Below, piece after piece: positions 9,457-63,696 of a DNA stretch of 64,000 nt. Within the stretch, counting starts at the first letter, position 1. Every line of letters starts with the position of its first letter. Position numbers and translations under genes: made by a program. The notes under the pieces were generated by a model, which saw nothing but the letters and a program-made list of their open reading frames with translations, searched no databases and was not told the DNA's origin. Location of the stretch: contig CALOCN010000001.1 of NCBI GenBank assembly GCA_942491735.1, positions 1,030,071 to 1,094,070 of the forward strand, read 5' to 3'. Source of the stretch: Candidatus Eiseniibacteriota bacterium. Lineage in GTDB: Bacteria; Eisenbacteria; RBG-16-71-46; JABDJR01.

Positions 9457-11601
9457 GTGGTCGATCTCTCGATCGTCATCGTTTCCTACCGCACACCGGA
9501 GGTGTTGCGGGAGTGCCTGAAGGTGCTCACCACGGATACGGGGACACGCAGCCGCGAGATCCTGGTGGTGGACAACGACTCGGGAGACGAGAGCCCGGCC
9601 GTGGCCCGCTCCTTCGAGGGAGTCCGGGTCATCGAGACCGGTGACAACCTGGGATTTGCCGGCGGCGTCAATCGCGGACTGGCCGAGGCCGACGGCCGTT
9701 TCCTCCTCGTCCTCAACCCGGATATCGAGGTCCAGCCCGGCTCCCTGGACACCCTGATCGACTTCATGGAGGCGCACCCCGAGACCGGGATCGCCGCCCC
9801 CAAGCTGCTCAACACCGACGGCACCCTGCAGCACTCCTGCCGCCGCTTCTACACCCTGAGCACGATCATCCTGCGACGCTCCTTCCTGGGCCGGATCTTT
9901 CCCGATGCCGCGCCGCTGCGGCGGCACCTCATGTTGGACTACGACCACGAGACCCCGCGCGCGGTCGATTGGGTGGCCGGAGCGGCCATGCTGGTGCGTC
10001 GCGAGGCGCTGGACGATGTGGGTCCCATGGACGAGCGCTACTTCCTCTACTTCGAGGACGTGGACTGGTGCACCCGCATGCAGGCCCGCGGTTGGCTGGT
10101 GCACTACGTGCCGGACAGCGTCATGACCCACCATTGGCAACGGGCGAGCCGCACCCTGGGTCCGGCCGCGCGGCGCCACCTGCGCAGCGGGCTCCGCTTC
10201 TACGACCGCTGGGGCGGGTTCCTCCATGTGCTGCGGCAATCGGCCGGTGCGTGGCGGACCGGCGCCCTCGTGGCCCTGGACCTGTTGACCATCACCGCCG
10301 CGTTTCTCCTCGCCTTCCTCGCCCGTCAGCAGATGGCCTTCTGGCTCCAGAAACCGGTCTGGTCGCTCTCCTTCTACGGCAGCTTCTTCGCGGCGAGCGT
10401 GGTGGTGTACCTGGCCGGTTTCTCCATGCAGGGGCTGTACCGGGAAGTCCGCGAGGGGGACTGGGTGGATGTGGCCTTCAGGGTGATCAAGGGAGCGACC
10501 CTGGGCGCGTTGGTGCTGATGGCATCGACCTTCGTCCTGGACATGCGCTCCTACTCCCGCGCCATCGTGCTCGCCTCGTGGCCCCTGGCCGCCATGGGCG
10601 TGTTCCTCAACCGTCGCCTGGTCTACGCGCTCAGCGCGCGGGCGCGCCGCGAGCGGTGGAACCTGCGCCGGGTCGCCCTGATCGGCGAGGACCCGGCCAT
10701 GGATCGTCTGGAAGCCACGCTCCGGGAGAACACTGAGCTGGGCTGGGAACCGGTGCGGATTCGCCGCACTCCCTGGGTGGGTCTGCCGCCCCGGGACGCC
10801 GACGCGCTGCTCATCACCCTCCTGGCCCGGGAGCGGGTCACCGAAGTGGTGGTCAGCCCCACCGCGTTGGGTGTGGCCGAGGATGCCGTGGCCGAACGCA
10901 TTCTCCCGCTGCGCCGCGCCGGTCACGGGGTTCGTCTGGTCTCCAACTTCCTCTCCGCGCTGCCTCCGCGGGCCCGGGTGGAACGGATCGGTGACGTCAG
11001 CTGGCTCGCCCTGGAACGGCCCCGCCTGCAGCCCACCAAGACCAGCAAGCGGGTGCTGGATCTGGCGGGGGCCCTTGTGCTTGGTGGGTTGGGTCTCCTT
11101 CCCGTGTTGGCCCTGGGCGCGGCCCGTGGCCTCGCCCGGCGCGAGTTTCTGGAACCTGGGACCCCCTGGAAGGGTCGATGGGGGGAGACCCTGCGTGTCC
11201 GGCGGATTGCCGGCGGGGGTCGTCTCGCCGATTACCCCCTGCTGGGCGCCGTGCTGAGGGGGCGGCTCAGCCTGGTGGGACCACGTCCGCTGGCTCCGGG
11301 GGAAACGGTTCCCGGGGGAGACGCCTGGCTTCGGGTGCGTGAGCACCACCGTCCCGGTCTGGTGGGTCCCTGGTCGCTGGTCGCGACCCAGACCCCTGAA
11401 GAGGAGATGCAACAGGAACTTCGGTATCTCGAAGATTGGACTGCGGAACTCGATCTCAAGCTCCTGGCGCGGGTGGCACTTCGCCGCCCGGGAGGCGGTC
11501 ATGGCAGCGGGTCCAGTTCTCCCGCGCGTCGCACGGAGACCGCTCCCGATGGCCGACCCTCGGCCGCCCCGCGCAGTGCCCACCCCATGGGGACCTCCTG
11601 A
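9457..11601 (+). CDS. fusion protein: N-terminal GT2 glycosyltransferase + membrane region + C-terminal polyprenyl-phosphate sugar phosphotransferase (Bac_transf-like)
   Basis: GTG start; N-terminus IVIVSYRTPE...VVDNDSGD (GT2); central hydrophobic segments; C-terminal region with RVLDLAGALVLGGLGL and PGLVGPWSL resembling WbaP/WcaJ-type sugar transferases. Confidence 0.65.
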   Translation: MVDLSIVIVSYRTPEVLRECLKVLTTDTGTRSREILVVDNDSGDESPAVARSFEGVRVIETGDNLGFAGGVNRGLAEADGRFLLVLNPDIEVQPGSLDTLIDFMEAHPETGIAAPKLLNTDGTLQHSCRRFYTLSTIILRRSFLGRIFPDAAPLRRHLMLDYDHETPRAVDWVAGAAMLVRREALDDVGPMDERYFLYFEDVDWCTRMQARGWLVHYVPDSVMTHHWQRASRTLGPAARRHLRSGLRFYDRWGGFLHVLRQSAGAWRTGALVALDLLTITAAFLLAFLARQQMAFWLQKPVWSLSFYGSFFAASVVVYLAGFSMQGLYREVREGDWVDVAFRVIKGATLGALVLMASTFVLDMRSYSRAIVLASWPLAAMGVFLNRRLVYALSARARRERWNLRRVALIGEDPAMDRLEATLRENTELGWEPVRIRRTPWVGLPPRDADALLITLLARERVTEVVVSPTALGVAEDAVAERILPLRRAGHGVRLVSNFLSALPPRARVERIGDVSWLALERPRLQPTKTSKRVLDLAGALVLGGLGLLPVLALGAARGLARREFLEPGTPWKGRWGETLRVRRIAGGGRLADYPLLGAVLRGRLSLVGPRPLAPGETVPGGDAWLRVREHHRPGLVGPWSLVATQTPEEEMQQELRYLEDWTAELDLKLLARVALRRPGGGHGSGSSSPARRTETAPDGRPSAAPRSAHPMGTS

Positions 11602-13874
11602 TGCATCACACTCCACGACACGGTCGGCTTCTCCCGGCCGTCCTGGCCCTTCTCGCGATTGCCGTCGCCCTCCCGCCGAACGTCCGGGCCCAGAACGCCG
11701 CCGACGCGTTTACCCCGTTCGTCGCCGCGTTCGACCTCACCGAGATCACCACCACCGGGGGCGTCCTGTGGATCGCCACCAACGGGGGGGGCGCGTTGCG
11801 TTTCGATCCCAACGGCGGCGGGTTCACCCAGTACCCCAAGTTGTTGGGCACCGGGCCGAGGGGCAACGACCTCGTCACCACCTGCGTCGATTCGGAGGGC
11901 CGGGTCTGGTTCGGCAGCGCCACCCGGGGTTTCACCTTCTTTGATCCGCAGACGCAGACCTGGGATCGCCGCTCGGAGGAATGGCCCGACCCACGGATCC
12001 GGGTCATCCGCTGCCTCGAGGAAGGGGTCTACATCGGCACCCAGGAGGGGCTCTCCCTGAAACCCACCGCCAACCGGACCGACATCTGTGCACCGGCCGA
12101 CCCCAGCTGCATTGTTCCCTCGTTCATCGTCAACGACTACGCCCTCCTGGACGAGAGTCTCTGGGTGGCGACCCGCGAGGGGTTGGGACGGTTCAGCGAG
12201 GGGACGTGGGACTCGCTGAACACGCTGCCGGTCGGGTCCCAGGGGCAGAACTCGCTCTCGCTGGTCACCTTCGAGGGGCAGCTCTGGGAAGCGGCGGAGT
12301 TCGCCGCCTCGACCGGGGCGGTGCGACGCCTGGTGGACGGGGCCTGGCAGGTGTTCGAGCTGCCGGCGCACAGGTTGCGCGTCCTCGACGGATCGCTCTA
12401 CGCCATCGCGGCCGGGGATCTGTTCCGCTGGGACGGTACCGCGTTCCAGCCCCTGTCCGAGCCGGTGGACGATGACATTCGCGACGTAGCTCTCCTGGAC
12501 GGTGTCTATTGGTTGACCACCGGCAACGGGTTGGTTTCCTGGAACGGCACCGCGGCCACGTCGACCCGCTTCGTTCCGCCCGGGTTGGGGCTGGGGGGGG
12601 AGTTCCAGGCCCTCACCGTGGACAGCAAGGGGACGGTGTGGGCCGGCACCATCGGGAACCGGATCGGCATTGCCTCCCGGACCCGAACCGGCGAGTGGGA
12701 CACGATCCTGCCGGGAGCGAGCGGCCTGGAGAACGAGTGGATCTTCCAGCTGTATGCCGACAGTGGGGATCGGTTGTGGATCGGACACTGCTGTTGTCCC
12801 GAGGGACGCTGCCGACTCGAGGTGGATTGTGCCGGCGGCATCGGGAGTATCGCCACCTACCGCAACGGGTGGGCGTTCGCCGAGGACAACGCCCGCCGCA
12901 TGTGGGTGGGGACGGATCAACTCGGCGCGTTGGTCTTCCGGCGCACCACGGACTGTTCCTGGGAGCTCGAGGATCAACTGACCGCCTCGGACCCCGCCGG
13001 CGTCATGTCTTCCAACAGCGTGCGCGCCATCGCGGTCACCGGGGAAGGCACCTACTTCGGCCACCTGCAGAACGGGCTCGACTACTGGCCGCACCGCGGC
13101 AACCTGAGCACGGGGCGGGACGGGTCGAACTGGATCCATGTCGGAACCACCGGCTTCGGACTCCTCGACAACAACGTGGGCTCCATTGCCCTGGTGGGGG
13201 AGGATGCCTGGGTCGGCACCTCGAGCGGCCTGCACCGGTTCCGCGCCGGGGGTCTGGTGACCCGGTGTCCCTCGCGTATTCTCGACGACCTGGACGATCA
13301 GGCCCGTCGGGTCACCGCGGTCACCGTCGATCGGGACGGGAACCTCTGGGTGGGGACGGATTCGGGACTGCTGTTCCTGCGGCGCGGAGGAGCCTGTGAC
13401 GCGGGCGGCGGCGAGTTCCTGTCCTACACCCAGGACAACTCCGCACTCCCGGACAACAACGTGCTCTCGGCCACCCTCAACCCGGTGGATGGTTCGGTCT
13501 GGATGGGAACGTCCACCGGTCTGCTGCGGATTGACCCCGCCGTCTTCACCAGCGGAGGAGGGAGCGCACCGGACCAGTACGTGCTCTATCCGAACCCCGT
13601 CGATCTGACCCGGGTCGGGGCGCGGGTGAGTCTGGGACTGGAGTCCGGCGGCTCCGTGGATCGCGTTCCCCTGGCCGATGCCCAGCAGCCGGAGGTCCTC
13701 GACATGGCGGGTCAGGCGGTGGGCCGGTTCGATACCTTCATGGATGGCGGCGACGAGGGTTGGGTGTGGAACGGGAAGAACCTGACCGGGAGCGTGGTCG
13801 CCCCGGGACTCTATTTCGTGCGAACGCAGGTCGGAGGACAGACGGTGGTGCTCAAGCTCGGGGTAGTGCGATGA
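11601..13874 (+). CDS. secreted beta-propeller protein (two-component-regulator-propeller-like repeats) with C-terminal FlgD-Ig/T9SS-like domain
   Basis: Internal ATG 11601 (overlaps upstream stop, TGATG); signal-peptide-like MHHTPRHGRLLPAVLALLAIAVALPPNVRAQ; about 10 repeats of LW[IV]GT..GL..F type; C-terminal YPNP...WNGKN..G..V..GLYFV. Confidence 0.65.
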   Translation: MHHTPRHGRLLPAVLALLAIAVALPPNVRAQNAADAFTPFVAAFDLTEITTTGGVLWIATNGGGALRFDPNGGGFTQYPKLLGTGPRGNDLVTTCVDSEGRVWFGSATRGFTFFDPQTQTWDRRSEEWPDPRIRVIRCLEEGVYIGTQEGLSLKPTANRTDICAPADPSCIVPSFIVNDYALLDESLWVATREGLGRFSEGTWDSLNTLPVGSQGQNSLSLVTFEGQLWEAAEFAASTGAVRRLVDGAWQVFELPAHRLRVLDGSLYAIAAGDLFRWDGTAFQPLSEPVDDDIRDVALLDGVYWLTTGNGLVSWNGTAATSTRFVPPGLGLGGEFQALTVDSKGTVWAGTIGNRIGIASRTRTGEWDTILPGASGLENEWIFQLYADSGDRLWIGHCCCPEGRCRLEVDCAGGIGSIATYRNGWAFAEDNARRMWVGTDQLGALVFRRTTDCSWELEDQLTASDPAGVMSSNSVRAIAVTGEGTYFGHLQNGLDYWPHRGNLSTGRDGSNWIHVGTTGFGLLDNNVGSIALVGEDAWVGTSSGLHRFRAGGLVTRCPSRILDDLDDQARRVTAVTVDRDGNLWVGTDSGLLFLRRGGACDAGGGEFLSYTQDNSALPDNNVLSATLNPVDGSVWMGTSTGLLRIDPAVFTSGGGSAPDQYVLYPNPVDLTRVGARVSLGLESGGSVDRVPLADAQQPEVLDMAGQAVGRFDTFMDGGDEGWVWNGKNLTGSVVAPGLYFVRTQVGGQTVVLKLGVVR

Positions 13875-15325: not shown

Positions 15326-15333
15326 GCGGGGCG

Positions 15334-16311
15334 GTGGTGGACGTTCTGGACGCCGACGCGCCCCCCGAGGGAATGGACGCGCTCTGGACCTCGGTGCCCG
15401 GGGCCACCCTGTTCCTGCAACCGAGATGGACCGAGACCCTTTCCCGCGCCTTTCCCGGGCTTCGGTCCCGTTATCTGATCGCCCGCGAGGGGAACCGCCT
15501 GACCGGCGTGTTGCCCTACACCCTCAAACGCAAGCTGGGTCTGGATCAGGTGCTTTCCTCCCCCTTCGGGACCCACGGGGGTCCGCTCACCGCCGACGGT
15601 CCCACCGCATCCCGTCTCGCCGAGGCGTTCCACAAGCGCGCCACCCGCCCCACCGTGGTCCGCTGCGAGCTCACCGTATTCGATCCCTCCTCGGAACTGA
15701 CCGAGGCCCTGCGCCCGTCCCTGGGCACGTGGTTCCAGGAGTTCCAGACCCACGTCATCGACCTCACCCCGGGGCACGAGGAACTCTGGCTTCACCGGTA
15801 TCGGCGCAACACCCGCAACTGTGTCCGGATGGCCGAACGGGCCGGGCTGCTCTACACGGTGGAGCGGGACGAGGCGGCGCTTGCCTTCCTCGCCCGTACC
15901 CACGCCGAACAGGCCGAGGCCTGGACCGGCATTCCTCCCGTCCCCCTGGAGGCGCTGCGGGTGGTGATGGACGCCTACGGTAATGACGCACGCATTCTGG
16001 TGGGACGCCGGGAGGGGGAGCCGGTGTGCGCCATTCTCATGCTGGAACAGTCGGGGCGGGAAACCCACGCCTGGGTCAGCGGAGCGGTGCCCGAAGCACG
16101 GCCCTTGCGCGCCTATCACGGGCTGATCGACGCCACCATCAAGGACGCCTGCTCCCGCGGGGTAGCCGCGTATCACTTCGGCGGAAGCGGTCGGAAGGAA
16201 AAGCTCGAGTTCTTCAAGGAGACCTTCGCCGCCAAACCGGTCCCCGTCTTGCGTTGCTTCCACATGGCGGGCTGGTTTCGCAGGCTCCGCCGGGGGCCGG
16301 CATGGGACTGA
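15334..16311 (+). CDS. FemAB-like / BioF2-like GNAT-fold acyl- or aminoacyl-transferase
   Basis: GTG start; by-eye resemblance to Acetyltransf_6/FemAB family proteins common in EPS loci. Confidence 0.55.
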   Translation: MVDVLDADAPPEGMDALWTSVPGATLFLQPRWTETLSRAFPGLRSRYLIAREGNRLTGVLPYTLKRKLGLDQVLSSPFGTHGGPLTADGPTASRLAEAFHKRATRPTVVRCELTVFDPSSELTEALRPSLGTWFQEFQTHVIDLTPGHEELWLHRYRRNTRNCVRMAERAGLLYTVERDEAALAFLARTHAEQAEAWTGIPPVPLEALRVVMDAYGNDARILVGRREGEPVCAILMLEQSGRETHAWVSGAVPEARPLRAYHGLIDATIKDACSRGVAAYHFGGSGRKEKLEFFKETFAAKPVPVLRCFHMAGWFRRLRRGPAWD

Positions 16312-17891
16312 GCCGGCTCCTGCCCCTGGCCCTGGTCCTGGTCGCCGTCCTGTTGGGGATCGTGCTCGTTGAGCCCTATCGCGCGGTCACGGTCGAGTTC
16401 GACGACGGACGCACCCTGTCCGTGGTGAACCCGGAACGTCTCAACCACACCTCGGACGTGTGGGACTACCTGCAGCTGGGACGCCGGTTGTTCGAGGGAT
16501 ACGGCTTCAGCAGCCGCTTCACCTATGTCCCGTTCCTGCCGGAGTCCGCCGCGTATCTGGAGGAGCATGACGCGTTCCCGCTCCTCTGGCGCCAACCCGG
16601 CTATCCGGCGCTGCTCGCCCTGGGCTACCGGTTGGCCGGGGGGCCGGACCCCAACGTCCTGCTGGCCCTGCAGCTCCTGTGGGTGATCCTGCTCCCCCTG
16701 GCCACGCTCTACCTGGCCCGCGCCCTGCTCCCGCCGGGAGGCGCCGCGCTGGCCGCCGGGCTCGCCCTGGCTTCGCCGCTCGTGCTGGGTGTACGGGAAC
16801 CCTTGGTGGCGACCACCTTCTTTGCCTGCTGGACCGCGCTCCTTTTCGGTACCGCGCTTCGGGTGCGGGGGCCCATGGGGGTGATCGGGTTGGGGCTGTT
16901 GATCGGGGTGGGGGCCTTGTTCCGCCAGGAGACCTGGCTTCTCGTTCCCGCACTGTTCACCGTGTGGTGGGTGCGAGGCGAGCGGGGGCGGGTGAGCGGG
17001 GTGGCCATCGCCGCGGTCACGGTCCTCCTCGTGCTGCTCCCCTGGATGGTTCGCACCGCGCAGATCACCGGGCACCCGTTCTACAACGCGGCGTCGCTGA
17101 TCTACCACGACACCCCGTCCTTTCCCGGCTGGGCCGCCTCGCGCACCCTGGCCATCCGCGAAACGACCCCGCTCGCGTTCATCCTGGCCCATCCCCTCGA
17201 CATCCTGGCCAAGAGTGCGCTGAACCTGCTCCGGTTCGGCAGGGACCTGCTGCTGCTGCCGGGACCTGCCGCGGCCCTGTTCGCCTGGTGGTTCCTCATT
17301 CGTCCCCAGTCGACCCAACCGCGGGTTCGCGCGTACCGGTGGGGCTACCTGGTTGCCCTTGCCGTTCCGGTACTCGTACTGGCCCCCATGGAGTACGCCC
17401 CCCGTTTTCTCGCCCCCATGGTTCCCCTGGGGGCCACCGCGGCCGCCTTCGCCCTGTCCCGGATTCCCGGTCGGTCGCGTCTGTTGACCGTCGTGGTGCT
17501 CGTGGTGTCCCTGGTCGTGCTGGTCTCCGCGATTCGCAACCGACCGGTCCGGGGAACCGCTCCCGAGGCGATTCGCGACCTGCAGGAACTGGTGTTGCAG
17601 GTGGGGCCCCGCGCACTGGAGCCGGACCAGGTCGTGGTGAGCGATGCCCCGACCCTCTTTGCCTATCTCTGGGATCGGCCGGCAGTGTGGGCACCGGTGC
17701 CGTTGAGCATGCCGGCGGTTCGGGAACTGGTCCCGGTCCGGCTCGGTCTCCTCACCTGCACGGGCGGCATCTATGACGGTCTGCCCCCGGAACTCCTGGG
17801 GCGCTACGCGGCCTACGGCCGGGTGACCCCGCATGGGTGTCGGGCCTGGGTGGACTTCGCTGACCCGCCCGCGGAAGCGACCACCCCATGA
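16302..17891 (+). CDS. polytopic membrane protein, putative GT-C glycosyltransferase (ArnT/PMT-like)
   Basis: Internal ATG 16302; many hydrophobic segments; first-loop motif DVWDYLQLGRRLFEGYG resembling the D(E)xxYxxxAR motif of GT39/GT83 enzymes; assignment tentative. Confidence 0.4.
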   Translation: MGLSRLLPLALVLVAVLLGIVLVEPYRAVTVEFDDGRTLSVVNPERLNHTSDVWDYLQLGRRLFEGYGFSSRFTYVPFLPESAAYLEEHDAFPLLWRQPGYPALLALGYRLAGGPDPNVLLALQLLWVILLPLATLYLARALLPPGGAALAAGLALASPLVLGVREPLVATTFFACWTALLFGTALRVRGPMGVIGLGLLIGVGALFRQETWLLVPALFTVWWVRGERGRVSGVAIAAVTVLLVLLPWMVRTAQITGHPFYNAASLIYHDTPSFPGWAASRTLAIRETTPLAFILAHPLDILAKSALNLLRFGRDLLLLPGPAAALFAWWFLIRPQSTQPRVRAYRWGYLVALAVPVLVLAPMEYAPRFLAPMVPLGATAAAFALSRIPGRSRLLTVVVLVVSLVVLVSAIRNRPVRGTAPEAIRDLQELVLQVGPRALEPDQVVVSDAPTLFAYLWDRPAVWAPVPLSMPAVRELVPVRLGLLTCTGGIYDGLPPELLGRYAAYGRVTPHGCRAWVDFADPPAEATTP

Positions 17892-19438
17892 GCCGCATCC
17901 GCACCAACACCGCGGCCCTTACCGTGAGTTTCTTCGCCACCGCGGCGTTCTACTTCGTCCAGCTCAAGATCATCACCAATTTCCTCAGTCAGACGCAGGT
18001 GGGCGCGTGGACCGCGGTGACCGCGACCGCGCTCCTCCTCATTCCCTTTGCCGAATTGGGGATGGCCCAGGTCCTGGTGCGCTACGGCGCCAAGTACGAG
18101 GCCGAGGGACGCGCCGGTCGATTGGTGGGGTTGTTCGTGCTCTCGTTGAAGGTTCTCGCCGGGGGCGCGCTGGTCGCGGCGGGTGTCCTGCTCCTGACCG
18201 GCCCCTCCCTGGCCGAGTTCCTCGGGAAGGGGGATGAGGAGATCAACCGATGGCTGCTGTTGTTGGGCTTCGCCGCGCTGACCACCGGTTCGCTTCGCGC
18301 CCTGAACAACGCCGCCCTGAGAGGTCTGCGTCGCATGCCGGCCATGGCCGGGTTGGAGATCGGTTTCGGCGCGCTGGTCACGGTGGGTTACTTCCTCTTT
18401 CGTGACCGTCTGGATGTGGGCATGGTGTTCGTGCTCTGGGGTGCGGCGAGCCTCGGGGTCGCGGTGAGCGGCATGGTCTATCTGGTGCGACAGTTCCGCG
18501 CGCTCCCCCCCGATCCCGCGCCCGGAGGGATCCTGCGCGAAGTGCAGGGGTTCTGGCAGGGGGCGGCGACCGGCGGCATTTTCCTCATCGCCATCGAACA
18601 ACTCGACAAGCCCATCCTGGCCGGAATGGTCACCCTGGACCAGCTCGCCCTCTTCCATGTCGCGTCGCGGCTTGCGTTGTTCCCGAGGCGATTGGCCTAT
18701 GTTCCGCTCCAGGTGCTCTACCCGGAAATCACCCACAAGTGGGAGGGGCCCCGGCGTCACGAGTTGCGCGCGGACATGGAGTTGTTCACCAAGCTGATGC
18801 TGGGACTGGGGCTGGCCATGGTCGCGGTCCTGGCCGTCTTCGCCGAACCCCTGCTCCGTCTCAGCTCCAAACCCGAGTACGTGAGCGCAGCCCCGGTGCT
18901 GTGGATGTTCCTGGCCGTGCTGCCGCTCATCTCGCTGCATCAGCCCATGGTCGTCTTCCTGCGTGCCACCGGCATGGTCTGGTACGCCTTCGTGGCCGAG
19001 GCGGCGTGGCTCGTTTCCTACCTGGGAGTGGGGATGCTGCTCCTGTCCCGGTTCGGTCTTCCCGGTTTCGTGGGTGGGCAACTGGTCGCCTCGAGCCTGG
19101 TGCTGGTCTACCTCCTGTTCATCTTCCACCGCCTGGAACTGCCCCGTCCCACCGTGGTCTTCTACCTCAAGCGCTTCCTGGTTTCGACCTTGGTGTGGGT
19201 TCCCTCCGTGGCCATCGGTTCCCGCTTCACCCCGGAGACGATTCCCGCGGCCCTGGTTGCGGTGGTGGGTCTGCTGCTGGTGGGGAATCTGATGGTGGTG
19301 TTGGGCGGTTTCCTCACCCGGGACGAGGAGGACCGGACCCTGGCCATGTTGGCCGGCCGGGGTCGTCTGGGGAGCCTGATCGGATTCTTCTTCGCCTGGC
19401 CACGACGCTTGCTGGGCCTGCGGGGGACGAGCGGGTGA
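17888..19438 (+). CDS. Wzx-like flippase (MOP-superfamily polysaccharide biosynthesis protein)
   Basis: 516 aa, hydrophobic throughout with multiple predicted TM helices; ATG overlaps upstream stop (ATGA). Confidence 0.7.
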   Translation: MSRIRTNTAALTVSFFATAAFYFVQLKIITNFLSQTQVGAWTAVTATALLLIPFAELGMAQVLVRYGAKYEAEGRAGRLVGLFVLSLKVLAGGALVAAGVLLLTGPSLAEFLGKGDEEINRWLLLLGFAALTTGSLRALNNAALRGLRRMPAMAGLEIGFGALVTVGYFLFRDRLDVGMVFVLWGAASLGVAVSGMVYLVRQFRALPPDPAPGGILREVQGFWQGAATGGIFLIAIEQLDKPILAGMVTLDQLALFHVASRLALFPRRLAYVPLQVLYPEITHKWEGPRRHELRADMELFTKLMLGLGLAMVAVLAVFAEPLLRLSSKPEYVSAAPVLWMFLAVLPLISLHQPMVVFLRATGMVWYAFVAEAAWLVSYLGVGMLLLSRFGLPGFVGGQLVASSLVLVYLLFIFHRLELPRPTVVFYLKRFLVSTLVWVPSVAIGSRFTPETIPAALVAVVGLLLVGNLMVVLGGFLTRDEEDRTLAMLAGRGRLGSLIGFFFAWPRRLLGLRGTSG

Positions 19439-34016: not shown

Positions 34017-34017
34017 C

Positions 34018-35634: not shown

Positions 35635-35951
35635 ACCCGGCGCCGGTCGGCGTCGAACCACGTCATGCGTCCTCAGCACTCCTCGAAGGACGTCAGACAT
35701 CGTCCGTGGCCGGTCTCCTGACTTGCGGGTCATCCTCGGGTCGCCCCTTCCCGGAAACGTGTTCCAGTGGGATTCTTGCGACCGTTGTCACCGCTTACAG
35801 TGGCGGGTCCGTGCCGGATTCTCACCGGCTTCCCGTGCACCACGGACGAGATGTGAGTGAGGCGCAGTCTAGGGATGCGGGAGGGGGGGGTCAATGAGGA
35901 ACAGGGAATCGGTTACGGTTAGGCGGGATACAGGTTCGGGAAGGAGCAGCG

Positions 35952-38835: not shown

Positions 38836-38837
38836 CG

Positions 38838-47821: not shown

Positions 47822-47895
47822 GTACTTTCTTGACAATAGTTTATGACTTTCCCTGGGGAAAGTCGCTCGGGTTTCGGCGGCGGTAGGTGCCTGTT

Positions 47896-48646: not shown

Positions 48647-48701
48647 TCAGCCACCCGGCCTCGGGTCCCCCCGCCGGTTTCACCTGCGCTAGAATCCCGT
48701 C

Positions 48702-51802: not shown

Positions 51803-54800
51803 TCAGCGCACCCGCACCACGCGCCGCATCGCGGTCACGTCCGGGGTTTCCACCCGGACCAGATACACCCCGGCCGCCACAAGCGCCCCCTGCGTGTTAC
51901 GTCCATCCCAACGCAACTCGTGGGCTCCGCTTTTCAGCACGCCGTCCTTGAGCGATCGCACCAGTCGCCCGGACGCGTCGAACACCCGCACCCGCACCGG
52001 TCCCGCGGTCGCCATCTCGAACTGAAGTCGCGTGCCCAGTGAGAACGGGTTCGGGAACGCGGCCAGCGCCACCGGCGACACGACGGGCGTATCCGCGGCA
52101 AGGATGGGCTCGGCGGTGCGGAAGTGTCCCTGGTTGCGGCCGGCCACCCCGGGCCGGAACCAGCGCGTGGCGGGGAAGTAGGGCGACGGCGTTCGCAGCC
52201 GCCACTGCACGGAGTAGAGCGTGGATGGATTGAGCCCGGTGAGCTGGTTCAGGAGCTCCGTGGAGGAACCCAGGCTCCCCACCACCGGTCCGGTCTCGGC
52301 CCAGCCGCTGTACCAACTGATGCTGAGATCTCCCAGGTAGGGGTGGTCCGAGGTCGGATAGATCCACCACTCCTGCCGGATCCGGGTGCGCCCGGCCGGG
52401 CTCTGGGCACGCCCGGTATGGATCTGGATCTGATCCGGTAGGTCGGTCGTTCCCAGACGGGAAACCGGTTGCCCCCCACTGTTCCGGATCTGGGGCCGGT
52501 GTGGAGTCTGCCAGAACTGCGAGGTCCCTCCGCCGGGGTAGCTCCACACCCGCCCCCGCTGACTGATTCCTCCATTGAGGTAATCGACTGCGGACCCGGC
52601 CGGATCGCAGAAACCATCCCCGTTGAAGTCACCGGCCGCCACCGCCCAACCACCGTGCGCGCCCGCCTGGTTGGACCCCGACCACCACGCGCCAAACCCG
52701 CCCACCTCCATCACGCCCCACCGGCCTTCCGTGTTCTGGCCGTCGGTGTAGTAGGGCGCCCCCGCGACCAGGTCTCCCAGCCCGTCCGCGTTCACGTCCC
52801 CGGCGTCGGCCAACGCGAATCCCAGGTTGGCTCCGGTCTGGCCGCCCCACTCGGAGCGGCTGATGTTCTGGTATTCCAGCCGCACCATGCCTTCGTTGCT
52901 GAAGGTGCTGGTGGCCCACGGTGCTCCCATGGCCACGCCGTCCTCGTGGCCGTTGGGGGAGGCCACGGCGGCGAGCGCGTAGCCCAGCTGGATCCCGGTC
53001 GGGAACGGAGTCAACGACGACCCCTGCCATTCCCAGGTGGGGGTGGTCTCCGGTCCGGTGGGTCCGCCTCGGTACCCCCGCACCAGTCCCTCGTCATCCG
53101 CATTGTCGTCGAAGAGCGGGGCCGAGACGAACAGGTCGGTGTACCCGTCCCCATCCTTGTCGCAGGCCGTAACCGCGAAGCCGAACGCGCACCCGGAGTG
53201 CGGCCCGGTGACCGTCCATACCGGGGTGGCGGCCAGCCCGGTCGGCGACCCCAGGTAGCAGAACGCCGCGCCCAGGTTGCTCGACCCGTAGTCCTTCGCC
53301 CCGACGATCACATCGGCGTAGCCGTCTCCGTTGACGTCACCCGCCGAGGCCACCGCGTTCCCCACGAAATCCGAGACGCCCCCCACGGTGCTGAACCAGT
53401 TCGCCACGGCTCCCGGACCGGTGGCCGATCCGTGAAACAGGTACGCCCTCCCGGAGTTCGCACCACCTCCGTTGTCCCCGCGCGCCCCCACCAGCACGTC
53501 GTCGAACCCATCCCCGTTCACGTCTCCGGCGATGGCCACCGAGGAGCCGTGCCAGTCGTAGACCGCGTTCCCTTCATGGGTCCAGGGAGCGGGGAGGGTC
53601 GTGCTGAGCCCCAGGGACCCGCCATAGACCAGCTCCACCCGTCCCGCCTCCGTACCATGGATCCCGTCGTAGAACGGCGATCCCACCAGGAGATCCTCGT
53701 ACCCATCCCCGTTGACATCCCCCCCGCTCCCCAGGGACTGGCCGTATTGTTCGCCGGTCTGGTCCCCGAAGATGGCGAATCCGCCCGTGGTGGCCAGGCC
53801 CTCGGCCCCGCCCTTGAAGAGCCGGACCCGACCCGCGTTGATGTTGGCTCCATCGTCGTAGATGTATTCCGCTGCGAGGTATTCCGAGAACCCGTTTCCA
53901 TCGACGTCACCGGCGGTGGCCACGCAGTGACCCAGGGCCGCCCAGTCCTGGGTGCCGTTCAGGTACCAATCGAAGTTCGCGCCGATCCCCGTCGCCGATC
54001 CCGAGTAGCCCAGGATGCGCCCCGCGTTGGTGGCCCCGTACCAGGGGACGCCCACCATGAGATCGGCGTAGCCGTTCCCGTCCAGGTCGCCGGCCGGGGC
54101 GACCGAGAACCCGAACTGGTCGCCGCTCCCTCCGCTGAGGATACGGCTACCGGTGTTGGTGAGCCCCGTCGCCGTGCCGTAGCAGACGATGACCCGCCCG
54201 GCCTGGGTGGCCAGGGGGTAATCCGGAGCGCCGATGGCGGCGTCGGCATAGCCGTCCCGATTGACGTCGCCGGCCAACGAGACACAGTGACCGTAGCGTG
54301 CGTTGGCCGCGGGCCCGACCAGGGTCCAGGTGTCCAGGGCGTAGGTTCCGGTGGAGCTCCCCAGATACAATTGGACCTGGCCCGCCTCGGGCGAGGCAAG
54401 ACCGGGATTGTAGCCGGGGGATCCCACCAGCCAGTCGGAGTAGCCGTCGCCGTTGACGTCCCCGCAGGTCGACACGCTGTAGCCGAACTCGGAACCACTC
54501 GTGCCGCCTCCCACCCATCCGGTGCTGGTGGAGAGGCCGGTCGAGGAACCCAGGTGCAGATAGGCGCGACCCGGAGAGCCGAAGGTGGCTCCCCATTCCG
54601 GAGCGCCGATCAACACGTCGCAGTACCCATCCCCGTTGACGTCGCCCGCGGTGGCGACCGAGAACCCGGTCCTGGATTGGCTGCTCCCCACGCGCTCCCA
54701 ATCCGGGGTGGTGGAAAGCCCGGTCGCCGAACCCAGGTAGAGATAGGCGTACCCGCGGTTGGAGTCCGCGAACGGAGCCCCCACCAGGACGTCGTCGTAG

Positions 54801-55252: not shown

Positions 55253-57613
55253 CTAGGACTCCGGTCCCGCAAGTCCCCGATACCGTTCGGCTTCCGTGGG
55301 TTGATTCAGGGTTTCGTAGAGGTCGGCCAGCACGCCGGCGATCTTCCGGGTGTTGGGGTGCTCCGGTCCCGACAGGCCCACCATCGCGTCGTAGACCCCG
55401 GTAAGGATCGGCTCCGCCTCGGCCGGCCGTCCCAGATCGATCAGGGACAGAGCGAACGAGCCGCGGAAGCTCTGGGTGCGCACATCCGCGTCTCCCAGAA
55501 GGCTGTCGGCGATGGCCAGGGCCCGTTCGTGGAAGGGGATCGCTTCCGCCGGTCGATCCATGTTGTAGAGCTGCTTGGCCACCGCGTTGTATCCCATGGC
55601 GGTGCTGGAGTTGAGTTCTCCCAACACCCGGATCTTGTCCTTGAGGACCTGCTCGAACGTCTCCAGGGCCAGGGCCTGGTCCCCGTTGGCGTTGTAGAGA
55701 TAGGCCAGGTTGTTGTGCATGACCAGCACGTCGGGGTTGTCGGCGCCATAGAGAGCGATTCCCATTTCGCAGGCCGCCGCCATGAGCGGGGTGGCCTCGT
55801 CCAGCCGGTCCACCTGCCAGAGCAGGTTCCCCAGGGCGCCGGCCATGACGAAGGTGACCTCGCTCTGGTTCCCAAAGGACGCCCGTGCCCGGGCCAACGC
55901 GTCCTCGATGTGCGGGATGGCCTCCTCCAGACGTCCGTGCGCTTCCTCGAGCCCCCCCAGGAAATGCAGCGCATCGATGATCTCCACCCCGCGCGGATCC
56001 AGGCGGGGCATCACGCCCCGGATGCGTACCGCCATGGAGTCGGCCGAGTCCAGCCGCCCCGTGTCGATGAACACGTCTCCCAGGGACTCCAGGGGTGGGT
56101 AGAGCCGCGGATCCCCCGGCTCCAGGATCGCGTCGAGCCGGGCCAGGGCGTGGCGGAAGTGGTGCTCCGCGTCCTCGTACCGCCCCATGCCGCGATAGGT
56201 GTCTCCCAGGGACAGGTGGGCGCTGGCCGCGACTTCCGGCAGATCTCCCAGCTCGCGGTCGATCACCGAGGTCGCGTTGCCCAGGACATCCAGGACCCGG
56301 ACGTCCGGGCCCGACTCCCAGGGATCCGGGGATTCCAGCAGGGTGACCATGAACTCGCTCAGCACCCGGGACTTCTCGGCTTCCGTCTCGGCCCGGGCGC
56401 GTGCGTGCTCGGCGCGCGACCAGCCGGCCACCGAAACGATCAGCCCGGCCAGGAGCACGGCCACCCCGGCCGCCCCGGTGAGCACCACGCCCCGGTTGCG
56501 CTTGGCGAACTTGCGGAACTGGTACACCGTGCTGGGGGGACGGGCCAGGATGGGCTCGCTGTCCAGGAACCGTTGCAGGTCGGCGGCCAGTTCACCGGGG
56601 GATCCGTAGCGCTGTTCCTTGTCCTTCTCCAGGCACTTGCGAACAATGGTCTCGAGGTCCGAGGGAAACCGCTGTTCCCCGTCCCCCAGCGAACTCGGCT
56701 CGTCCTCCTCGATCACCCGTGCCGCCTCGATGAGGCTCTTCCCCTGCAGCGCCTGCGGCAGGCGATCGGTCAACACCTCATAGCACAACACACCGAGGGC
56801 ATAGACGTCGGACCGGGTGTCCAGTTCGTCCTGCTGCCCGCGCACCTGCTCGGGGCTCATGTAGGGGAGGGTGCCCACGACCTGTCCCGCGTCGGTGCGG
56901 AAGGTGGTGGCCCGGACATCGTCGTCGAGGTGGCGCGCCACCCCGAAGTCGAGAATCTTGGGTTGCCCGTCCGGGCGGACCAGGATGTTGGCCGGTTTCA
57001 GGTCGCGGTGGACAATGCCGTTCTGGTGCGCGTGGTTGACCCCTTCGCACACCCGGATCAGGAGCTCGATCCGGTCCTTCGTGGAGAGCTTCATCTCGCG
57101 GGCAAACTCGGTCAGGGGGAGCCCGTCGATCAACTCCATGACGAAGTAGGGTTGCTGCCCCAGGGCCGCTCCGGTGGTCCCCGCATCGTAGACCCTGGCG
57201 ATCCCCGGGTGATCCAGTTGTCCTAGAAGCTCGGCCTCCAACTCGAATCTTTGCAATGCTTTGCGTGATAGGGCATCCCCTCGAATCAGCTTGAGGGCGA
57301 CGTCCCGGGAAGGCTGTTCCTGATGGGCGCGAAAGACCACACCCATGCCCCCTCCGGCGATGATGCCCTCGAGGCGGTAGCTGCCGATGGTCTTCCCCAA
57401 CCAGGCGTCCTCGCCTCCGATCGAGGCGATGGCGGAACCGCCCAGGAACTCTCCCGCCCGGGCGCCCGCCTGGAGCAGGGAGATCACCTCGGACTCGAGC
57501 TCGGTGTCCTCGCCGCTCTGATCCCGGACGAACGCCAGCCGCTCTTCCTCCGGAAGCTCGATGGCCTGATCGAACAACTCGCTGGCCCGGGCGAAGAGGT
57601 CGCGGGACGTCAT
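55253..57613 (-). CDS. Ser/Thr protein kinase with C-terminal TPR-like region and one transmembrane segment
   Basis: Internal ATG 57613 overlapping sigma stop (ATGA); catalytic loop HRDLKPANIL, DFGVA, SPEQ; TM segment GVVLTGAAGVAVLLAGLIVSVAG. Confidence 0.85.
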   Translation of the reverse strand: MTSRDLFARASELFDQAIELPEEERLAFVRDQSGEDTELESEVISLLQAGARAGEFLGGSAIASIGGEDAWLGKTIGSYRLEGIIAGGGMGVVFRAHQEQPSRDVALKLIRGDALSRKALQRFELEAELLGQLDHPGIARVYDAGTTGAALGQQPYFVMELIDGLPLTEFAREMKLSTKDRIELLIRVCEGVNHAHQNGIVHRDLKPANILVRPDGQPKILDFGVARHLDDDVRATTFRTDAGQVVGTLPYMSPEQVRGQQDELDTRSDVYALGVLCYEVLTDRLPQALQGKSLIEAARVIEEDEPSSLGDGEQRFPSDLETIVRKCLEKDKEQRYGSPGELAADLQRFLDSEPILARPPSTVYQFRKFAKRNRGVVLTGAAGVAVLLAGLIVSVAGWSRAEHARARAETEAEKSRVLSEFMVTLLESPDPWESGPDVRVLDVLGNATSVIDRELGDLPEVAASAHLSLGDTYRGMGRYEDAEHHFRHALARLDAILEPGDPRLYPPLESLGDVFIDTGRLDSADSMAVRIRGVMPRLDPRGVEIIDALHFLGGLEEAHGRLEEAIPHIEDALARARASFGNQSEVTFVMAGALGNLLWQVDRLDEATPLMAAACEMGIALYGADNPDVLVMHNNLAYLYNANGDQALALETFEQVLKDKIRVLGELNSSTAMGYNAVAKQLYNMDRPAEAIPFHERALAIADSLLGDADVRTQSFRGSFALSLIDLGRPAEAEPILTGVYDAMVGLSGPEHPNTRKIAGVLADLYETLNQPTEAERYRGLAGPES

Positions 57614-58170
57614 GCCTCGGGGCTCTCCGCGTTGAGTTCCCGGAAGAGCCAGGCGCGAGCGAAGGCCCACCGTCGGCGGACCGTGCGCACCCCGATGTCC
57701 AGCAGCTCGGCGATCTCCGTTTCCTTGAGTCCGGCGAAGTACTTGAGTTCCACGATGCGGCAGTCCTGGGGCGAACGATCGGCTAGGCGCTCCATGGCCT
57801 GGTTGAGCTCCAGCAGGTCGAAGTCCCGGTCCCCGGTGGTGATGTCGCTGAGGGTCACCCGGACCATCCCACCGCCCCGCTTGCGGCTGTTGTGCGCCCG
57901 GGCGTGATCCACCAGCACCCGCCGAATCTGCTGGGCGGCCACGCACATGAAGTGCCCCCGGTTCTGCCACCCCACCTGCTGTTGTGCCAGTCGCAGGTAC
58001 ACCTCGTGCACCAACGCCGTGGGCTGCAGGGTGTGGCTGCCCCGTTCATGCGCCATGTGATAGGCGGCCAGGGCGCGTAGCTCCTGGTAGACGACATCCA
58101 CCACCGAGTCGGTGCCGCTCAGGCTGGGGTCGGAAGGGGGGCCGGGCTCATTCGGGGTGTGTCGGGTCAT
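57610..58170 (-). CDS. ECF-type sigma factor of the Ser/Thr-kinase-associated class
   Basis: 186 aa; sigma-4-like HTH LKETEIAELLDIGVRTVRRRWAFAR; gene order sigma then kinase with 4-bp overlap. Confidence 0.7.
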   Translation of the reverse strand: MTRHTPNEPGPPSDPSLSGTDSVVDVVYQELRALAAYHMAHERGSHTLQPTALVHEVYLRLAQQQVGWQNRGHFMCVAAQQIRRVLVDHARAHNSRKRGGGMVRVTLSDITTGDRDFDLLELNQAMERLADRSPQDCRIVELKYFAGLKETEIAELLDIGVRTVRRRWAFARAWLFRELNAESPEA

Positions 58171-61500: not shown

Positions 61501-62742
61501 ACCACGGTCATCGACCTGTCCTGGACCGCTCCCGCCGAACCGGATGCCTACCAGACCCAGATCTGGCGGAAGGGCTTCGGGTTCTATCCCGAGTACGACG
61601 ACCTGGGGGGATCGGCGCCGACCGCTCCCGCCAACCCGGTCGACGCCCTCTCCCAGGGGTGGACCCTGGTCGCCACCCTTCCCGCCTCCTCCTCGAGCCA
61701 GGCGGACGAGACCGCGCTCGAGCGGGACTTCATGTACTTTGTCGCATTCGTCTCGGACAGCTGCGGCAACATCAGCGGTGTGTCCAACGTTACCGACGGG
61801 ACGCTGAACTATCACCTCGGGGATGTGGTGCCGGTGACTCCGCCTCCGTTCGGGGACAACCTGGTCGACGTGCTCGACATTTCCAAGCTTGGGGCGCACT
61901 ACGGCACCAGCGACGGGGACGCTCTCTATCTGGATACCCTGGACGTCGGTCCCACCTCCACCAACTTCGTGGATGGTCTTCCCGACACCGACGACAGCAT
62001 CCAGTTCGAGGACCTGATCCTCTTCGCCATCAACTTCGGTCAGGTCTCCAAGCCGGCGCCGCCGGTGGACGGCGAGGATCTCCTTGTGGTCCGTGTACCG
62101 GAACTCCCCGCGGCGGGGGACCTGGTGGTGTCGCTCGACATGACGGCCAGCGGACGCATCCAGGGTCTGAGCATTCCCCTGGGCTGGGACCCGGCGGTGG
62201 TCAAGCCGGTGAGCCTGGTTGGCGGGGAACTCCTGGACCGGCAGACCGGGGTCGGGGTGGCCCTTGCCCCCTCGCCCGGGACCGTCGACGTGGCGGTGTT
62301 CGGCTCCGCCCTGTCGGGGACGGGGACCGTGGCCCAGGTGCGTTTCGAGGTTCTCGGGGCCGGTGACCCGGGCATCAGCCTGGGCGAGGTGACCGCCCGG
62401 GATGGCAGGAACCAACCGGTGGAGTTGGTGGGTTCGGTTGAGGGGGACCGCCGGGTCGTCCCGGTTGCCACCCGGTTCCTGGGGGCGAGCCCGAATCCCT
62501 TCCGCGCGGCCACCCGGGTGAACTTCACCCTGGCGCAGGAGACGCCGGTCGTGGCGCGCATCCATTCGGTGGACGGTCGCCTGGTTCGCACCCTGTTCGA
62601 GGGTTCCCTCGGTGCGGGTGAGCGTTCGGTGAGCTGGAACGGGCTCGACGCCAACGGTCGGCCGGCGGCCGCCGGGGTCTACGTCCTCCAGTTCCGGGCC
62701 GGGACCCTGCAGGAAAGTCGACGGATCGTCCGTCTACGCTGA
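58537..62742 (+). CDS. giant secreted protein: parallel beta-helix repeats, cohesin-like modules, dockerin-like segment, C-terminal FlgD-Ig/T9SS-like domain
   Basis: Internal ATG 58537 with AGGAGG 6 nt upstream; signal peptide MRVAVFATLLLLVLTPLALA; Gly/Thr/Asn-rich beta-helix-like repeats; dockerin-like GDNLVDVLDISKL...DTDDSIQFEDLILFAINFG; C-terminal SPNPFRA...WNGLDANGRPAAAGVYVL. Confidence 0.7.
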   Translation: MRVAVFATLLLLVLTPLALAAPQPGHPDGGEAIPVLQVDRGGPLAPSGPTDIMNLDTGNTYATIAAALADPLTLDGHTLEVQVASHGEGSVLVDKSVTLQGQTGTESVLATSNTSSSGDARGWFLVTAPNVTVRDLNFDGDGFLIWQGFRVKSTGTGITFDDCTFNDIRFQASGSPYAGNAIVSIDAEMAVTDCDFSLIGRHGIFFFGAGVTAGVASGNTYTGKGAGDWLDYGVEIGGGAVVTLTDNTITACTGVALSDGSTSAGVLASTFFGAGTTANATGNFLNANTTGFFAGYDASDVTVTAISDNDLSGNTDFGMVATSTTVTADASANWWGSNVAASVSAAISGDVDYTPWLDVGTDTGGPGFEGDFAVLHVDDDSPQTGATGRIQEGVDLVTASTVLVEPGTYVEQVIVDGMDVEIVGSGDGVTLVHAPASLATTFTTSGPNKPVISAMNTDSVIIRDLTVDGLGVGNANNRIMGVGFWNAGGALLDATVQNVIDTPFSGVQHGIGILAANNTGGPYALEVGNVVIQEYQKNGTAFTGGGLTVDMHDCTVIGKGATTTIAQNGIQFSGGAGGAITNCDVSDMDYTPDSYVSSGILCIGATPVDISGGSVTDVQESLYYIDTDGAIGDLTVTGGSEPYDAFFIYNTSTSAALNPLAAGSQKPVASPFTVGGGSGAGAGSASAPSAVMTVTIDQSCFTDPIPGPANTGIFAWTDGGPLDVTVTNTRVSGYDGGMRTAGGAVLTATNNHISGNTTSGYDNTGSGNAQVATLNYWGANDGPSGDGPGSGNAVLSVGGEVDFSSWRTDGASTTACAFNPVSGNSVDPVPDVDCVSTANPCVDVDFEITRADAIDMRGFSLTFQLSPELELCNGLASITEGTYLNAIGGTNFQVLDNGGGSYTVDAAILGLPCGATAATGTLFSIEVTNTGGDGTGTITVTGLILRDCVNVDIPGIAGSTTLQIDNTAVSAITDLAAAQQLTGNDGDGTTVIDLSWTAPAEPDAYQTQIWRKGFGFYPEYDDLGGSAPTAPANPVDALSQGWTLVATLPASSSSQADETALERDFMYFVAFVSDSCGNISGVSNVTDGTLNYHLGDVVPVTPPPFGDNLVDVLDISKLGAHYGTSDGDALYLDTLDVGPTSTNFVDGLPDTDDSIQFEDLILFAINFGQVSKPAPPVDGEDLLVVRVPELPAAGDLVVSLDMTASGRIQGLSIPLGWDPAVVKPVSLVGGELLDRQTGVGVALAPSPGTVDVAVFGSALSGTGTVAQVRFEVLGAGDPGISLGEVTARDGRNQPVELVGSVEGDRRVVPVATRFLGASPNPFRAATRVNFTLAQETPVVARIHSVDGRLVRTLFEGSLGAGERSVSWNGLDANGRPAAAGVYVLQFRAGTLQESRRIVRLR

Positions 62743-62832: not shown

Positions 62833-63696
62833 ATGAACGCCGCAACACGATTTCTTCGAAAGTCCAGGTTCCTGCTCTGCCTGTTGTTCTGGGGGCTCGT
62901 CTTTGTCATTGGTGTCGCTCGCGCCGAAGGCAACGGCGTTGCCCTTCTCCTGGAGGCCGAGTCGTCCTGTGCCTGCCAGTCCGGGCAGGTCGTGCAGGTG
63001 GCGCCGCTCCAGGTCTTCGATCTCGAGGTCCGCGTCCCCGCACCATCGGACAGCTTCAATGCCTACGAGGTAACCCTTGTCTTCGACCCCGCCCATCTCC
63101 TGTTTCAGCAACTCGCACCCCTTTCGCTGCAGGAAGGGGCGCTCATGACCACGGCGTGCCCCAGCCGGTTCCACGTGTTCAGCGAGACCTCCGGGACCAT
63201 CGAGTTGACCCACTCCCTCCTGTGCGCGGGGGTCCGGGTTGCCGGGGAGGGCACGGTCTATCGTCTGCGGTTCCAGGCTGCGGACCACGCCTCGATCAGC
63301 ACCGTCGAGTTCACCTCGGCCCGTGTCGTCGACGCGGGGATCCCGCTGGGACCGATCACCACCACCGGTGTGGAGGTACGGGTCGGGGACGTTTCCGCCG
63401 CCCCGTCTCCACCACCGGGACCTCTGCTTGAGGGCCCGATGCCGAATCCGACCCGGGGGGCGGCGGGATTTTCCGTGCGCTTTCCCCGTCCCACCCGGGT
63501 TGTGTTCGGTATCTACGACTCCAGGGGGCGACGTGTGTCCCTGGTCTATGAGGGCGCCGTGGACTCCGGCTCGCGAACCTTCCGCTGGAACGGACGGGAT
63601 CGGCTTGGGCGGGACGTCCCTCCCGGGGTGTACTACGCCCGCCTGGATACGCAGGACGGGACCCTGTCCCGGCGTCTGGTTCGACTCTCACGCTGA
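62833..63696 (+). CDS. secreted cohesin-like domain protein with C-terminal FlgD-Ig/T9SS-like domain
   Basis: Internal ATG 62833 with GGAGG upstream; signal peptide; C-terminal MPNPTRG...RWNGRDRLGRDVPPGVYYA. Confidence 0.6.
   Translation: MNAATRFLRKSRFLLCLLFWGLVFVIGVARAEGNGVALLLEAESSCACQSGQVVQVAPLQVFDLEVRVPAPSDSFNAYEVTLVFDPAHLLFQQLAPLSLQEGALMTTACPSRFHVFSETSGTIELTHSLLCAGVRVAGEGTVYRLRFQAADHASISTVEFTSARVVDAGIPLGPITTTGVEVRVGDVSAAPSPPPGPLLEGPMPNPTRGAAGFSVRFPRPTRVVFGIYDSRGRRVSLVYEGAVDSGSRTFRWNGRDRLGRDVPPGVYYARLDTQDGTLSRRLVRLSR

Follow-up and report, generated by a model that had tools for sequence, protein, structure and literature searches.

A C-terminal module shared by eight predicted secreted proteins of an Eisenbacteria genome is probably a type IX secretion sorting domain

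Introduction

Proteins that bear a type IX secretion system (T9SS) C-terminal domain (CTD) of type A, such as RgpB, PorU, PorZ and the corresponding cargo of Flavobacterium johnsoniae, combine an N-terminal Sec signal peptide with a domain of ∼80–100 residues at the extreme C-terminus, and are otherwise very diverse. The domain is a seven-strand immunoglobulin (Ig)-like sandwich in which a conserved glycine sits in the β3–β4 turn, one strand carries GxY, and the last strand is basic/hydrophobic. Mutagenesis in Porphyromonas gingivalis has shown that the motifs termed L-β3-β4 and C-t. matter for secretion, and several Fibrobacteres–Chlorobi–Bacteroidetes (FCB) group phyla outside the Bacteroidota have been listed in a review as possible holders of the system (PMC11285876). 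According to the same source, CTDs can be incompatible from one species to another. The present work deals with a 64-kb stretch of DNA from Candidatus Eiseniibacteriota (contig CALOCN010000001.1, positions 1,030,071 to 1,094,070; the whole of this stretch is referred to below as the window), in which eight of the ∼45 genes encode predicted secreted proteins that finish in a common module. This module shares all the traits just listed, and is most probably a T9SS type A CTD, in the FlgD_ig-like sequence flavour that non-Bacteroidota relatives commonly have. The module itself is a signal of a known kind; what is new is its members in a little-studied lineage.

Other described proteins are also relevant to the locus. 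PorZ (PDB 5m11; structure in PMC5121618) delivers anionic lipopolysaccharide (LPS) to the PorU sortase in P. gingivalis (PMC8545088). BtuG1 belongs to the Bacteroides BtuB1G1 complex (PDB 8blw, chain B; PMC10404256), in which BtuG is a surface lipoprotein with an N-terminal lipid anchor that acts as the lid of BtuB. The flagellar hook-cap protein FlgD (PF13860; PDB 7eh9, 7bhq and 3osv) has an N-terminal domain of its own, an internal Ig domain, and no Sec signal peptide.

Results

Eight predicted secreted proteins end in the same module

The proteins that carry the module are given below with their coordinates in the window, the position of the module, and the scores of their domains. TIGR04183 is the NCBIfam model for the T9SS type A sorting domain, with a cut-off of 23 bits.

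C1, 11601..13874, plus strand: 757 residues; signal peptide, two Reg_prop β-propellers (Reg_prop 61.6 bits), module at 13578..13871; PorZ-like architecture.
C2, 28514..29449, plus strand: 311 residues; predicted to be secreted, passenger without assigned function; module at 29201..29446; TIGR04183 25.0–27.8 bits.
C3, 58537..62742, plus strand: right-handed β-helix giant of 1401 residues (Beta_helix 44.8 bits); module at 62476..62739; TIGR04183 26.5–31.3 bits.
C4, 62833..63696, plus strand: 287 residues; sub-threshold cohesin-like N-domain; module at 63424..63693; TIGR04183 26.2–28.6 bits.
C5, 30511..32043, minus strand: 510 residues, BNR-like (BNR_4 22.6 bits, sub-threshold); module at 30514..30762; TIGR04183 23.3–27.3 bits.
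C6, 34018..35529, minus strand: YncE/BtuG-like β-propeller of 503 residues; module at 34021..34257; PF18962 29 bits; TIGR04183 27.4–30.5 bits.
C7, 39627..41669, minus strand: glycoside hydrolase family 16 (GH16) glucanase of 680 residues with an SdrD_B-like domain (Glyco_hydro_16 81 bits; SdrD_B 53.8 bits); module at 39630..39896; TIGR04183 38.7–39 bits.
C8, 51803..55159, minus strand: 1118 residues; FG-GAP 284 bits, in 11 stretches; module at 51806..52072; FlgD_ig 49.2 bits; TIGR04183 31.6–37.1 bits.

The initial annotation had proposed that at least eight proteins share a C-terminal module of ∼80 residues. When a hidden Markov model (HMM) built from the eight tails was run against the 530 six-frame open reading frames (ORFs) of the window, exactly these eight were recovered, at E 1e-21 to 1e-35, and the ORF ranked after them had E 0.29. 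Since such a self-search is circular, it was repeated in leave-one-out form; the omitted copy was always found among the first eight, at E 1.6e-9 in the case of C1, 2e-4 in that of C6 and 5e-15 to 3e-25 in the other six, with the ninth ORF at E ≥ 0.08. The window has a G+C content of ∼68%, and genuine genes were selected by their third-position GC. The gene ends proposed earlier were correct in all eight cases (stops at 13874, 29449, 62742 and 63696 on the plus strand, and at 30511, 34018, 39627 and 51803 on the minus strand). The last ∼81–98 residues of the proteins do align, defining a homologous module of ∼85 residues, close to the length first claimed, which in every case terminates at the final residue of the protein. 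These results confirmed the shared C-terminal module as a real family with exactly eight copies in the window.

The motif initially attributed to the family was approximately right. The tails all end in a basic and hydrophobic stretch and seven contain W.G.D..G (C6 does not), but the literal PNPF is present in just four, the variants elsewhere being PNPV, PNPM, PNPT and DNPS. In the alignment of the eight tails, the invariant residues are N and P within PNP, the glycine inside ‘D..GR.V’, and both G and Y in ‘GVY’.

The module had also been said to occur on enzymes, adhesin-like giants and propellers alike, which the Pfam assignments bore out (a GH16 enzyme, 11 FG-GAP repeats, a β-helix and propellers); the passenger domains are mutually unrelated across the eight proteins according to Pfam and NCBIfam. 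The secreted status claimed for the proteins agrees with the prediction of a Sec signal peptide in all of them, in which the n-region is basic, the core is hydrophobic and the site is AxA-like. Signal peptides were judged by inspection and by a hydropathy score, and the starts were placed by hydropathy and context (11601, 28514, 58537 and 62833 for C1 to C4; 32043, 35529, 41669 and 55159 for C5 to C8). Seven of the products were searched as exact strings and all were present in the public protein collection; independent gene calls thus match these starts.

The module resembles T9SS type A domains in sequence and fold

The further proposal, that the module represents a sorting or attachment signal that is either FlgD-Ig-like or of T9SS type, was examined with the two models that had been suggested for it. 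TIGR04183 was passed by seven of the eight proteins (tails 27.3–39 bits; full proteins 23.3–38.7 bits) and Pfam FlgD_ig (PF13860) by four; these matches, together with the signal peptides and the diversity of the cargo, support the proposal. Por_Secre_tail (PF18962; gathering cut-off [GA] 27) was passed by C6 alone, with 29 bits. The flavour of the window modules, with a W.G.D..G loop and a PNPF start, lies nearer to FlgD_ig than to the Bacteroidota-trained Por_Secre_tail model. Some homologues from Eisenbacteria, Zixibacteria and Krumholzibacteria have been named by NCBI as ‘T9SS type A sorting domain-containing’ or as ‘FlgD immunoglobulin-like domain containing’.

Compared with PDB sequences, the eight-tail profile matched the CTDs of PorZ (5m11; E 7e-8), PorU (6za2; E 1e-6), RgpB (5hfs; E 7e-4) and mirolase, and it matched over its full length (query positions 6–87) the F. 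johnsoniae CTD present in a translocon structure (8glj_D). An AlphaFold2 (AF2) model of the C8 tail, built from an alignment of 75 sequences, is a seven-strand sandwich with a predicted local distance difference test (pLDDT) score of 93.2, for which the Foldseek ranking of PDB entries was headed by the PorZ CTD, with the PorU CTD second, followed by ScpA and FlgD. The β3–β4 turn holds a glycine that is invariant in the eight tails and in all 75 aligned sequences, and the last strand of the chain is basic/hydrophobic; these correspond to the two motifs for which the mutagenesis data have been reported (PMC11285876).

Evidence against the assignment and alternative explanations

Several results weigh against a T9SS CTD, and a first set of these concerns the machinery and the lineage. 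A search of all window genes with Pfam and NCBIfam models revealed none of the T9SS core genes (SprA/Sov, PorV, PorU, GldK/L/M/N). The initial statement that no matching machinery is visible therefore holds for these core genes but not entirely for C1, which has the architecture of the attachment-complex component PorZ (see below). No T9SS core gene was present either among 10 ORFs without a CTD from Eisenbacteria-type loci, which instead encode Ser/Thr kinases, NosD-like β-helices, a pyrophosphatase and a transporter. When nine CTD proteins of ∼1000–1100 residues from related loci were tried as PorU, only one, from an unclassified metagenome-assembled genome (MAG; locus L007, 10631..13870, minus strand), matched, and then partially: this CTD protein of 1080 residues scored 61.7 bits with the PorU model over positions 495–703 (cut-off 420). 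Judging from its sequence, this protein could be either a distant relative of PorU or a peptidase of the C25 type. A literature search found no paper joining Eisenbacteria or Eiseniibacteriota with T9SS, which sets the host apart from those of the known CTDs, and the NCBI taxonomy places Eiseniibacteriota under candidate phyla and not formally in the FCB group.

A second set concerns the module itself. C1 lies under the TIGR04183 cut-off (21 bits for the tail, 16.5 bits for the full protein). The best sequence match of the eight-tail profile in the PDB is FlgD (E 2.5e-10), although over the core only (query positions 13–77). Finally, matches to the profile number 519,086 cluster representatives at E ≤ 1e-3, and in those with the highest scores up to 24 internal tandem copies occur. 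Since the fold is also found in internal repeats and in flagellar FlgD, it is by itself no proof of sorting, and the features that discriminate are the terminal position and the two end strands.

The alternative that survives best accepts the module as a true C-terminal sorting or anchoring signal, but has it read by non-canonical machinery, that is, by a reduced or a different outer-membrane system to which the Bacteroidota mechanism would not be transferable. The lack of T9SS core genes in the window, in the related-locus ORFs scanned and in the literature for the lineage speaks for this explanation, as does the fact that the neighbourhood makes use of at least one further short tail at the C-terminus (the WG-tail described below). 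It is nevertheless improbable given that the CTD resembles its PorU and PorZ counterparts in sequence as well as in fold, that a PorZ-like protein is present, that T9SS genes have been reported in several non-Bacteroidota FCB phyla (PMC11285876), and that the NCBI pipeline labels Eisenbacteria proteins as T9SS type A.

Even less credible is the idea that the module is a structural FlgD-type Ig-like domain, acting as a spacer or in binding, which is C-terminal by chance and plays no part in sorting. Its attraction lies in the ranking of FlgD as the best PDB sequence match, in the fact that FlgD_ig outscores Por_Secre_tail in seven of the eight proteins (Pfam), and in the multiple internal copies of the fold in many profile matches. 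The window modules do share with the FlgD Ig domain a homologous β-sandwich core and the pattern ‘GR.V...W.G.D..G..V..G.Y’, but the match stops at that core: the modules extend it by a PNPF strand and by a basic strand at the terminus, and close the protein. Their distribution in 29 related loci, retrieved with C3 as the query, points the same way. Copies covering nearly the whole model were found in Eisenbacteria, Calditrichaceae, Marinimicrobia, Fidelibacterota, Ignavibacteria, Melioribacteraceae, Cloacimonetes, KSB1, WOR-3 and Hymenobacter, and nearly all those in these FCB-type loci end 0–4 residues from the C-terminus, a few weaker matches falling 10–18 residues short. In Shewanella, Alteromonadaceae, Pseudoxanthomonas and an Acidobacteria MAG, the matches span just HMM positions ∼15–78 and are followed by 13–50 more residues, as in FlgD. 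The copies of the eight window proteins and of their FCB-type relatives are thus single and nearly always run to the end or stop a few residues before it; moreover, the window proteins have signal peptides and unrelated passengers, Pfam detects no FlgD N-terminal domain in them, and in one homologous family the tag is exchanged with PEP-CTERM (see below).

Two further identities were ruled out. That the proteins are FlgD themselves is incompatible with the terminal module, the signal peptides and the missing FlgD N-terminal domain in all eight, and scores with the NCBIfam FlgD equivalogs were all ≤ 40 bits, against cut-offs of 230–383. A PEP-CTERM/exosortase signal, which consists of a VPEP motif, a hydrophobic helix and an Arg-rich end, was discarded since none of the eight tails has such a helix.

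Predicted export route, cargo and relatives

If the module is a T9SS type A CTD, homology with the described systems would predict the following route. Each protein, by virtue of the N-terminal signal peptide seen in its sequence, would be carried over the inner membrane by Sec and would then fold in the periplasm. An outer-membrane T9SS translocon (SprA/Sov and PorV in model organisms) would recognise the seven-stranded Ig-like CTD and export the protein, after which a PorU-type sortase would remove the CTD and join the cargo to a surface glycolipid; alternatively, the protein would be released. The cargo fits the cell surface, comprising the GH16 glucanase, the adhesin-like giants with FG-GAP repeats and a β-helix, the BtuG-like propeller, a candidate for B12 capture that would have to sit on its BtuB-like receptor, and the PorZ-like double propeller.

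The tag would thus mark a substantial predicted surface or secreted proteome in an uncultured candidate phylum, and leads to predictions of which enzymes and adhesin-like giants the cell displays. Standard HMMs would annotate seven of the eight proteins, so the value of the set is contextual; the leads worth following are the PorZ-like gene in a glycan operon, the BtuG-like protein that bears a CTD, and the exchange between T9SS CTD, PEP-CTERM and WG-tail. The nearest genomic loci belong to Candidatus Eisenbacteria MAGs with a G+C content of 65–71%, similar to that of the window. Orthologues of C3 occur in two of these loci, with 48% (L002) and 41% (L003) identity, and an orthologue of C1 (48% identity) lies on the same 2.07-Mb MAG contig as a C3 orthologue.

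C1 is a PorZ-like protein encoded within a polysaccharide operon

C1 is made up of two propellers and the CTD, and lacks Y_Y_Y and kinase domains. With the NCBIfam PorZ model (NF052228) it scored 83.8 bits (E 9.4e-24), at 16–17% identity and far from the cut-off of 260; the best stretch, residues 571–757, is colinear with positions 590–757 of the model, which has 757 positions, the same length as C1. An AF2 model of C1 (pLDDT 85.7) gave PorZ (5m11) as the best whole-chain Foldseek match, with a template-modelling (TM) score of 0.60 versus 0.34–0.36 for the sensors of hybrid two-component systems. C1 is therefore described here as PorZ-like by architecture, its membership of the PorZ family not being established.

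C1 departs from PorZ in two respects. First, it contains an invariant HCCC..C motif: in C1 and 21 orthologues, residues C163, C170, H396-C397-C398-C399 and C404 are all invariant, the C163/C170 segment corresponding to a low-confidence loop of the C1 model. These cysteines may form a metal or disulfide site; to our knowledge, no comparable motif has been described for PorZ. Second, the gene is embedded in an operon for polysaccharide synthesis, a setting that we do not know of for porZ:

Polysaccharide-biosynthesis operon enclosing C1, 1255..23547, plus strand (Pfam, NCBIfam).

This operon encodes epimerases, glycosyltransferases of families 2 (GT2) and 4 (GT4), a methyltransferase, an ADH/GFO oxidoreductase, a heparinase II/III-like protein, a fusion of GT2 with a polyprenyl glycosylphosphotransferase, a CapD-like protein, Acetyltransf_6 proteins and a Wzx-like flippase. 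The start of C1 overlaps the stop of the GT2/polyprenyl-glycosylphosphotransferase gene and its stop overlaps the start of the CapD-like gene; C1 is, as read from these overlaps, translationally coupled to its operon neighbours. Orthologues of C1 (43–49% identity) are syntenic in three other contigs (L031, L033 and L034), where the conserved order is methyltransferase, ADH/GFO oxidoreductase, heparinase II/III-like protein, epimerase, GT2, GT2/Bac_transf, C1 orthologue, CapD and Acetyltransf_6, with the Wzx-like flippase after Acetyltransf_6 where the related contig reaches that far. In some gene calls the transferase is fused to C1.

Since PorZ delivers anionic LPS to PorU, the fixed position of the PorZ-like C1 in a glycan operon is suggestive, by analogy, of a similar role in glycan delivery. 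PorZ binds the anchor glycolipid and acts together with PorU, PorV and PorQ; for such a function of C1 the support is contextual, its orthologues lying in every case within this polysaccharide operon. The operon and C1 may together produce the surface glycan on which T9SS cargo is anchored, and deliver it. If true, this would be the first case in which the synthesis of an anchor glycan and its delivery protein are encoded as one unit.

C6 and C5 belong to an operon behind a cobalamin riboswitch

C6 and C5 are two of the four genes of an operon (35529..29450, minus strand) in which the genes abut tightly or overlap, in the order C6, TonB-dependent receptor, C5 and a lipobox-bearing YVTN propeller. 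The elements that accompany C6 and C5 are:

35691..35859, minus strand: cobalamin riboswitch (Rfam RF00174, 117.4 bits, GA 31.5, full length 1–189), 162 nucleotides upstream of C6.
32040..34016, minus strand: TonB-dependent receptor, between C6 and C5, with Plug and TonB_dep_Rec_b-barrel domains.
29450..30514, minus strand: YVTN-repeat β-propeller (TIGR02276 39.9 bits), last gene of the operon; it bears a lipobox (MKTLVLAAVLWVLAGC), and the eight-tail HMM gave no CTD match in it.

The best family match of the receptor is TIGR01779 (TonB-B12), with 146 bits, below the cut-off of 599.7. C5, the third gene, shares ATGA overlaps with both the upstream receptor gene and the downstream lipoprotein gene.

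In the PDB, the C6 propeller matched BtuG1 (8blw_B; E 7.7e-8) and the YncE-family entries 8ptd and 8ptf (E 3.3e-8). The resemblance to BtuG is modest, extending over ∼200 residues, but it coincides with a location next to a B12-type TonB-dependent receptor and behind a cobalamin riboswitch. Where BtuG has its lipid anchor, C6 instead combines a plain signal peptide with the T9SS CTD, in keeping with a role of the tag in anchoring at the surface. C6 may therefore be regarded as a BtuG-like candidate for B12 capture in which, to judge from the sequence, a T9SS CTD takes the place of the lipid anchor.

A neighbouring secreted protein has exchangeable C-terminal tails

A further protein of the window bears on how such C-terminal ends are used:

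25383..26021, plus strand: small secreted protein, ending in ‘...PVEPTTWGQVKDLYR’, without Pfam or NCBIfam match.

The 56 homologues found for this protein have a passenger in common up to a conserved ‘LGVDNI.A’, beyond which their ends differ. Most have a PEP-CTERM tail, while five have a T9SS CTD, two a dockerin domain and seven, the window copy included, a short TWGQVKDLYR-like tail that follows the pattern P-x(2,3)-[ST][ST]-W-G-x-[VL]-[KR]-x-[LS]-[YF]-[RKD] and is referred to here as the WG-tail. The PEP-CTERM tails were seen only in the homologues from other organisms. The occurrence of different ends at one junction in homologous proteins indicates that the C-terminal ends there are exchangeable sorting tags, the 85-residue module among them. 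Two small ORFs located between giant CTD genes in an Eisenbacteria MAG (L002, 3348..4214 and 17218..17931) end in the same WG-tail.

From these sequences, the WG-tail may be a third, undescribed C-terminal sorting signal. That this is so and that, at the same time, the glycan operon and the PorZ-like C1 make and deliver the T9SS anchor glycan is, as a joint proposal, rather doubtful.

Observations on the giants C3 and C4 and other features of the window

Sub-threshold matches to Pfam Cohesin (PF00963; 16.7–21.2 bits, GA 24.1) were found in four related segments, namely 62833..63696 (C4, 18.3 bits), 61900..62470 (the part of C3 that precedes the CTD), 63697..64000, and 17218..17931 of L002, and one stretch of C3 looks dockerin-like by eye. 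A cohesin-type assembly of the surface giants may be envisaged from these sequences, although PDB sequence searches made with the idea of cohesin–dockerin pairing in C3, C4 and the ORF at 63697 gave no match. Divergent from the adjoining C3 and C4 (58537..63696, plus strand) are a gene for an extracytoplasmic function (ECF) sigma factor and one for a Ser/Thr kinase-TPR protein (55253..58170, minus strand). Ser/Thr kinase-TPR genes also lie beside C3-like giants in two related loci (L004 and L022), which suggests a conserved regulatory pairing.

A tRNA-Ser(gct) called by ARAGORN at 554..632 (minus strand) is probably a false positive, as it falls inside a glycosyltransferase gene strongly supported by Pfam and Rfam gives no tRNA there. 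Between the molybdopterin oxidoreductase and GTPase genes, ∼870 bp (47822..48700) lack a convincing coding-frame signal and match nothing in Rfam. The AT skew, about −0.03 elsewhere, drops to −0.28 at 16001..20000. The low-skew region corresponds to two genes for polytopic membrane proteins, a polymerase-like ORF (16.3–17.9 kb) and the Wzx-like flippase (17.9–19.4 kb), and the drop is likely to result from the codon usage of hydrophobic residues.

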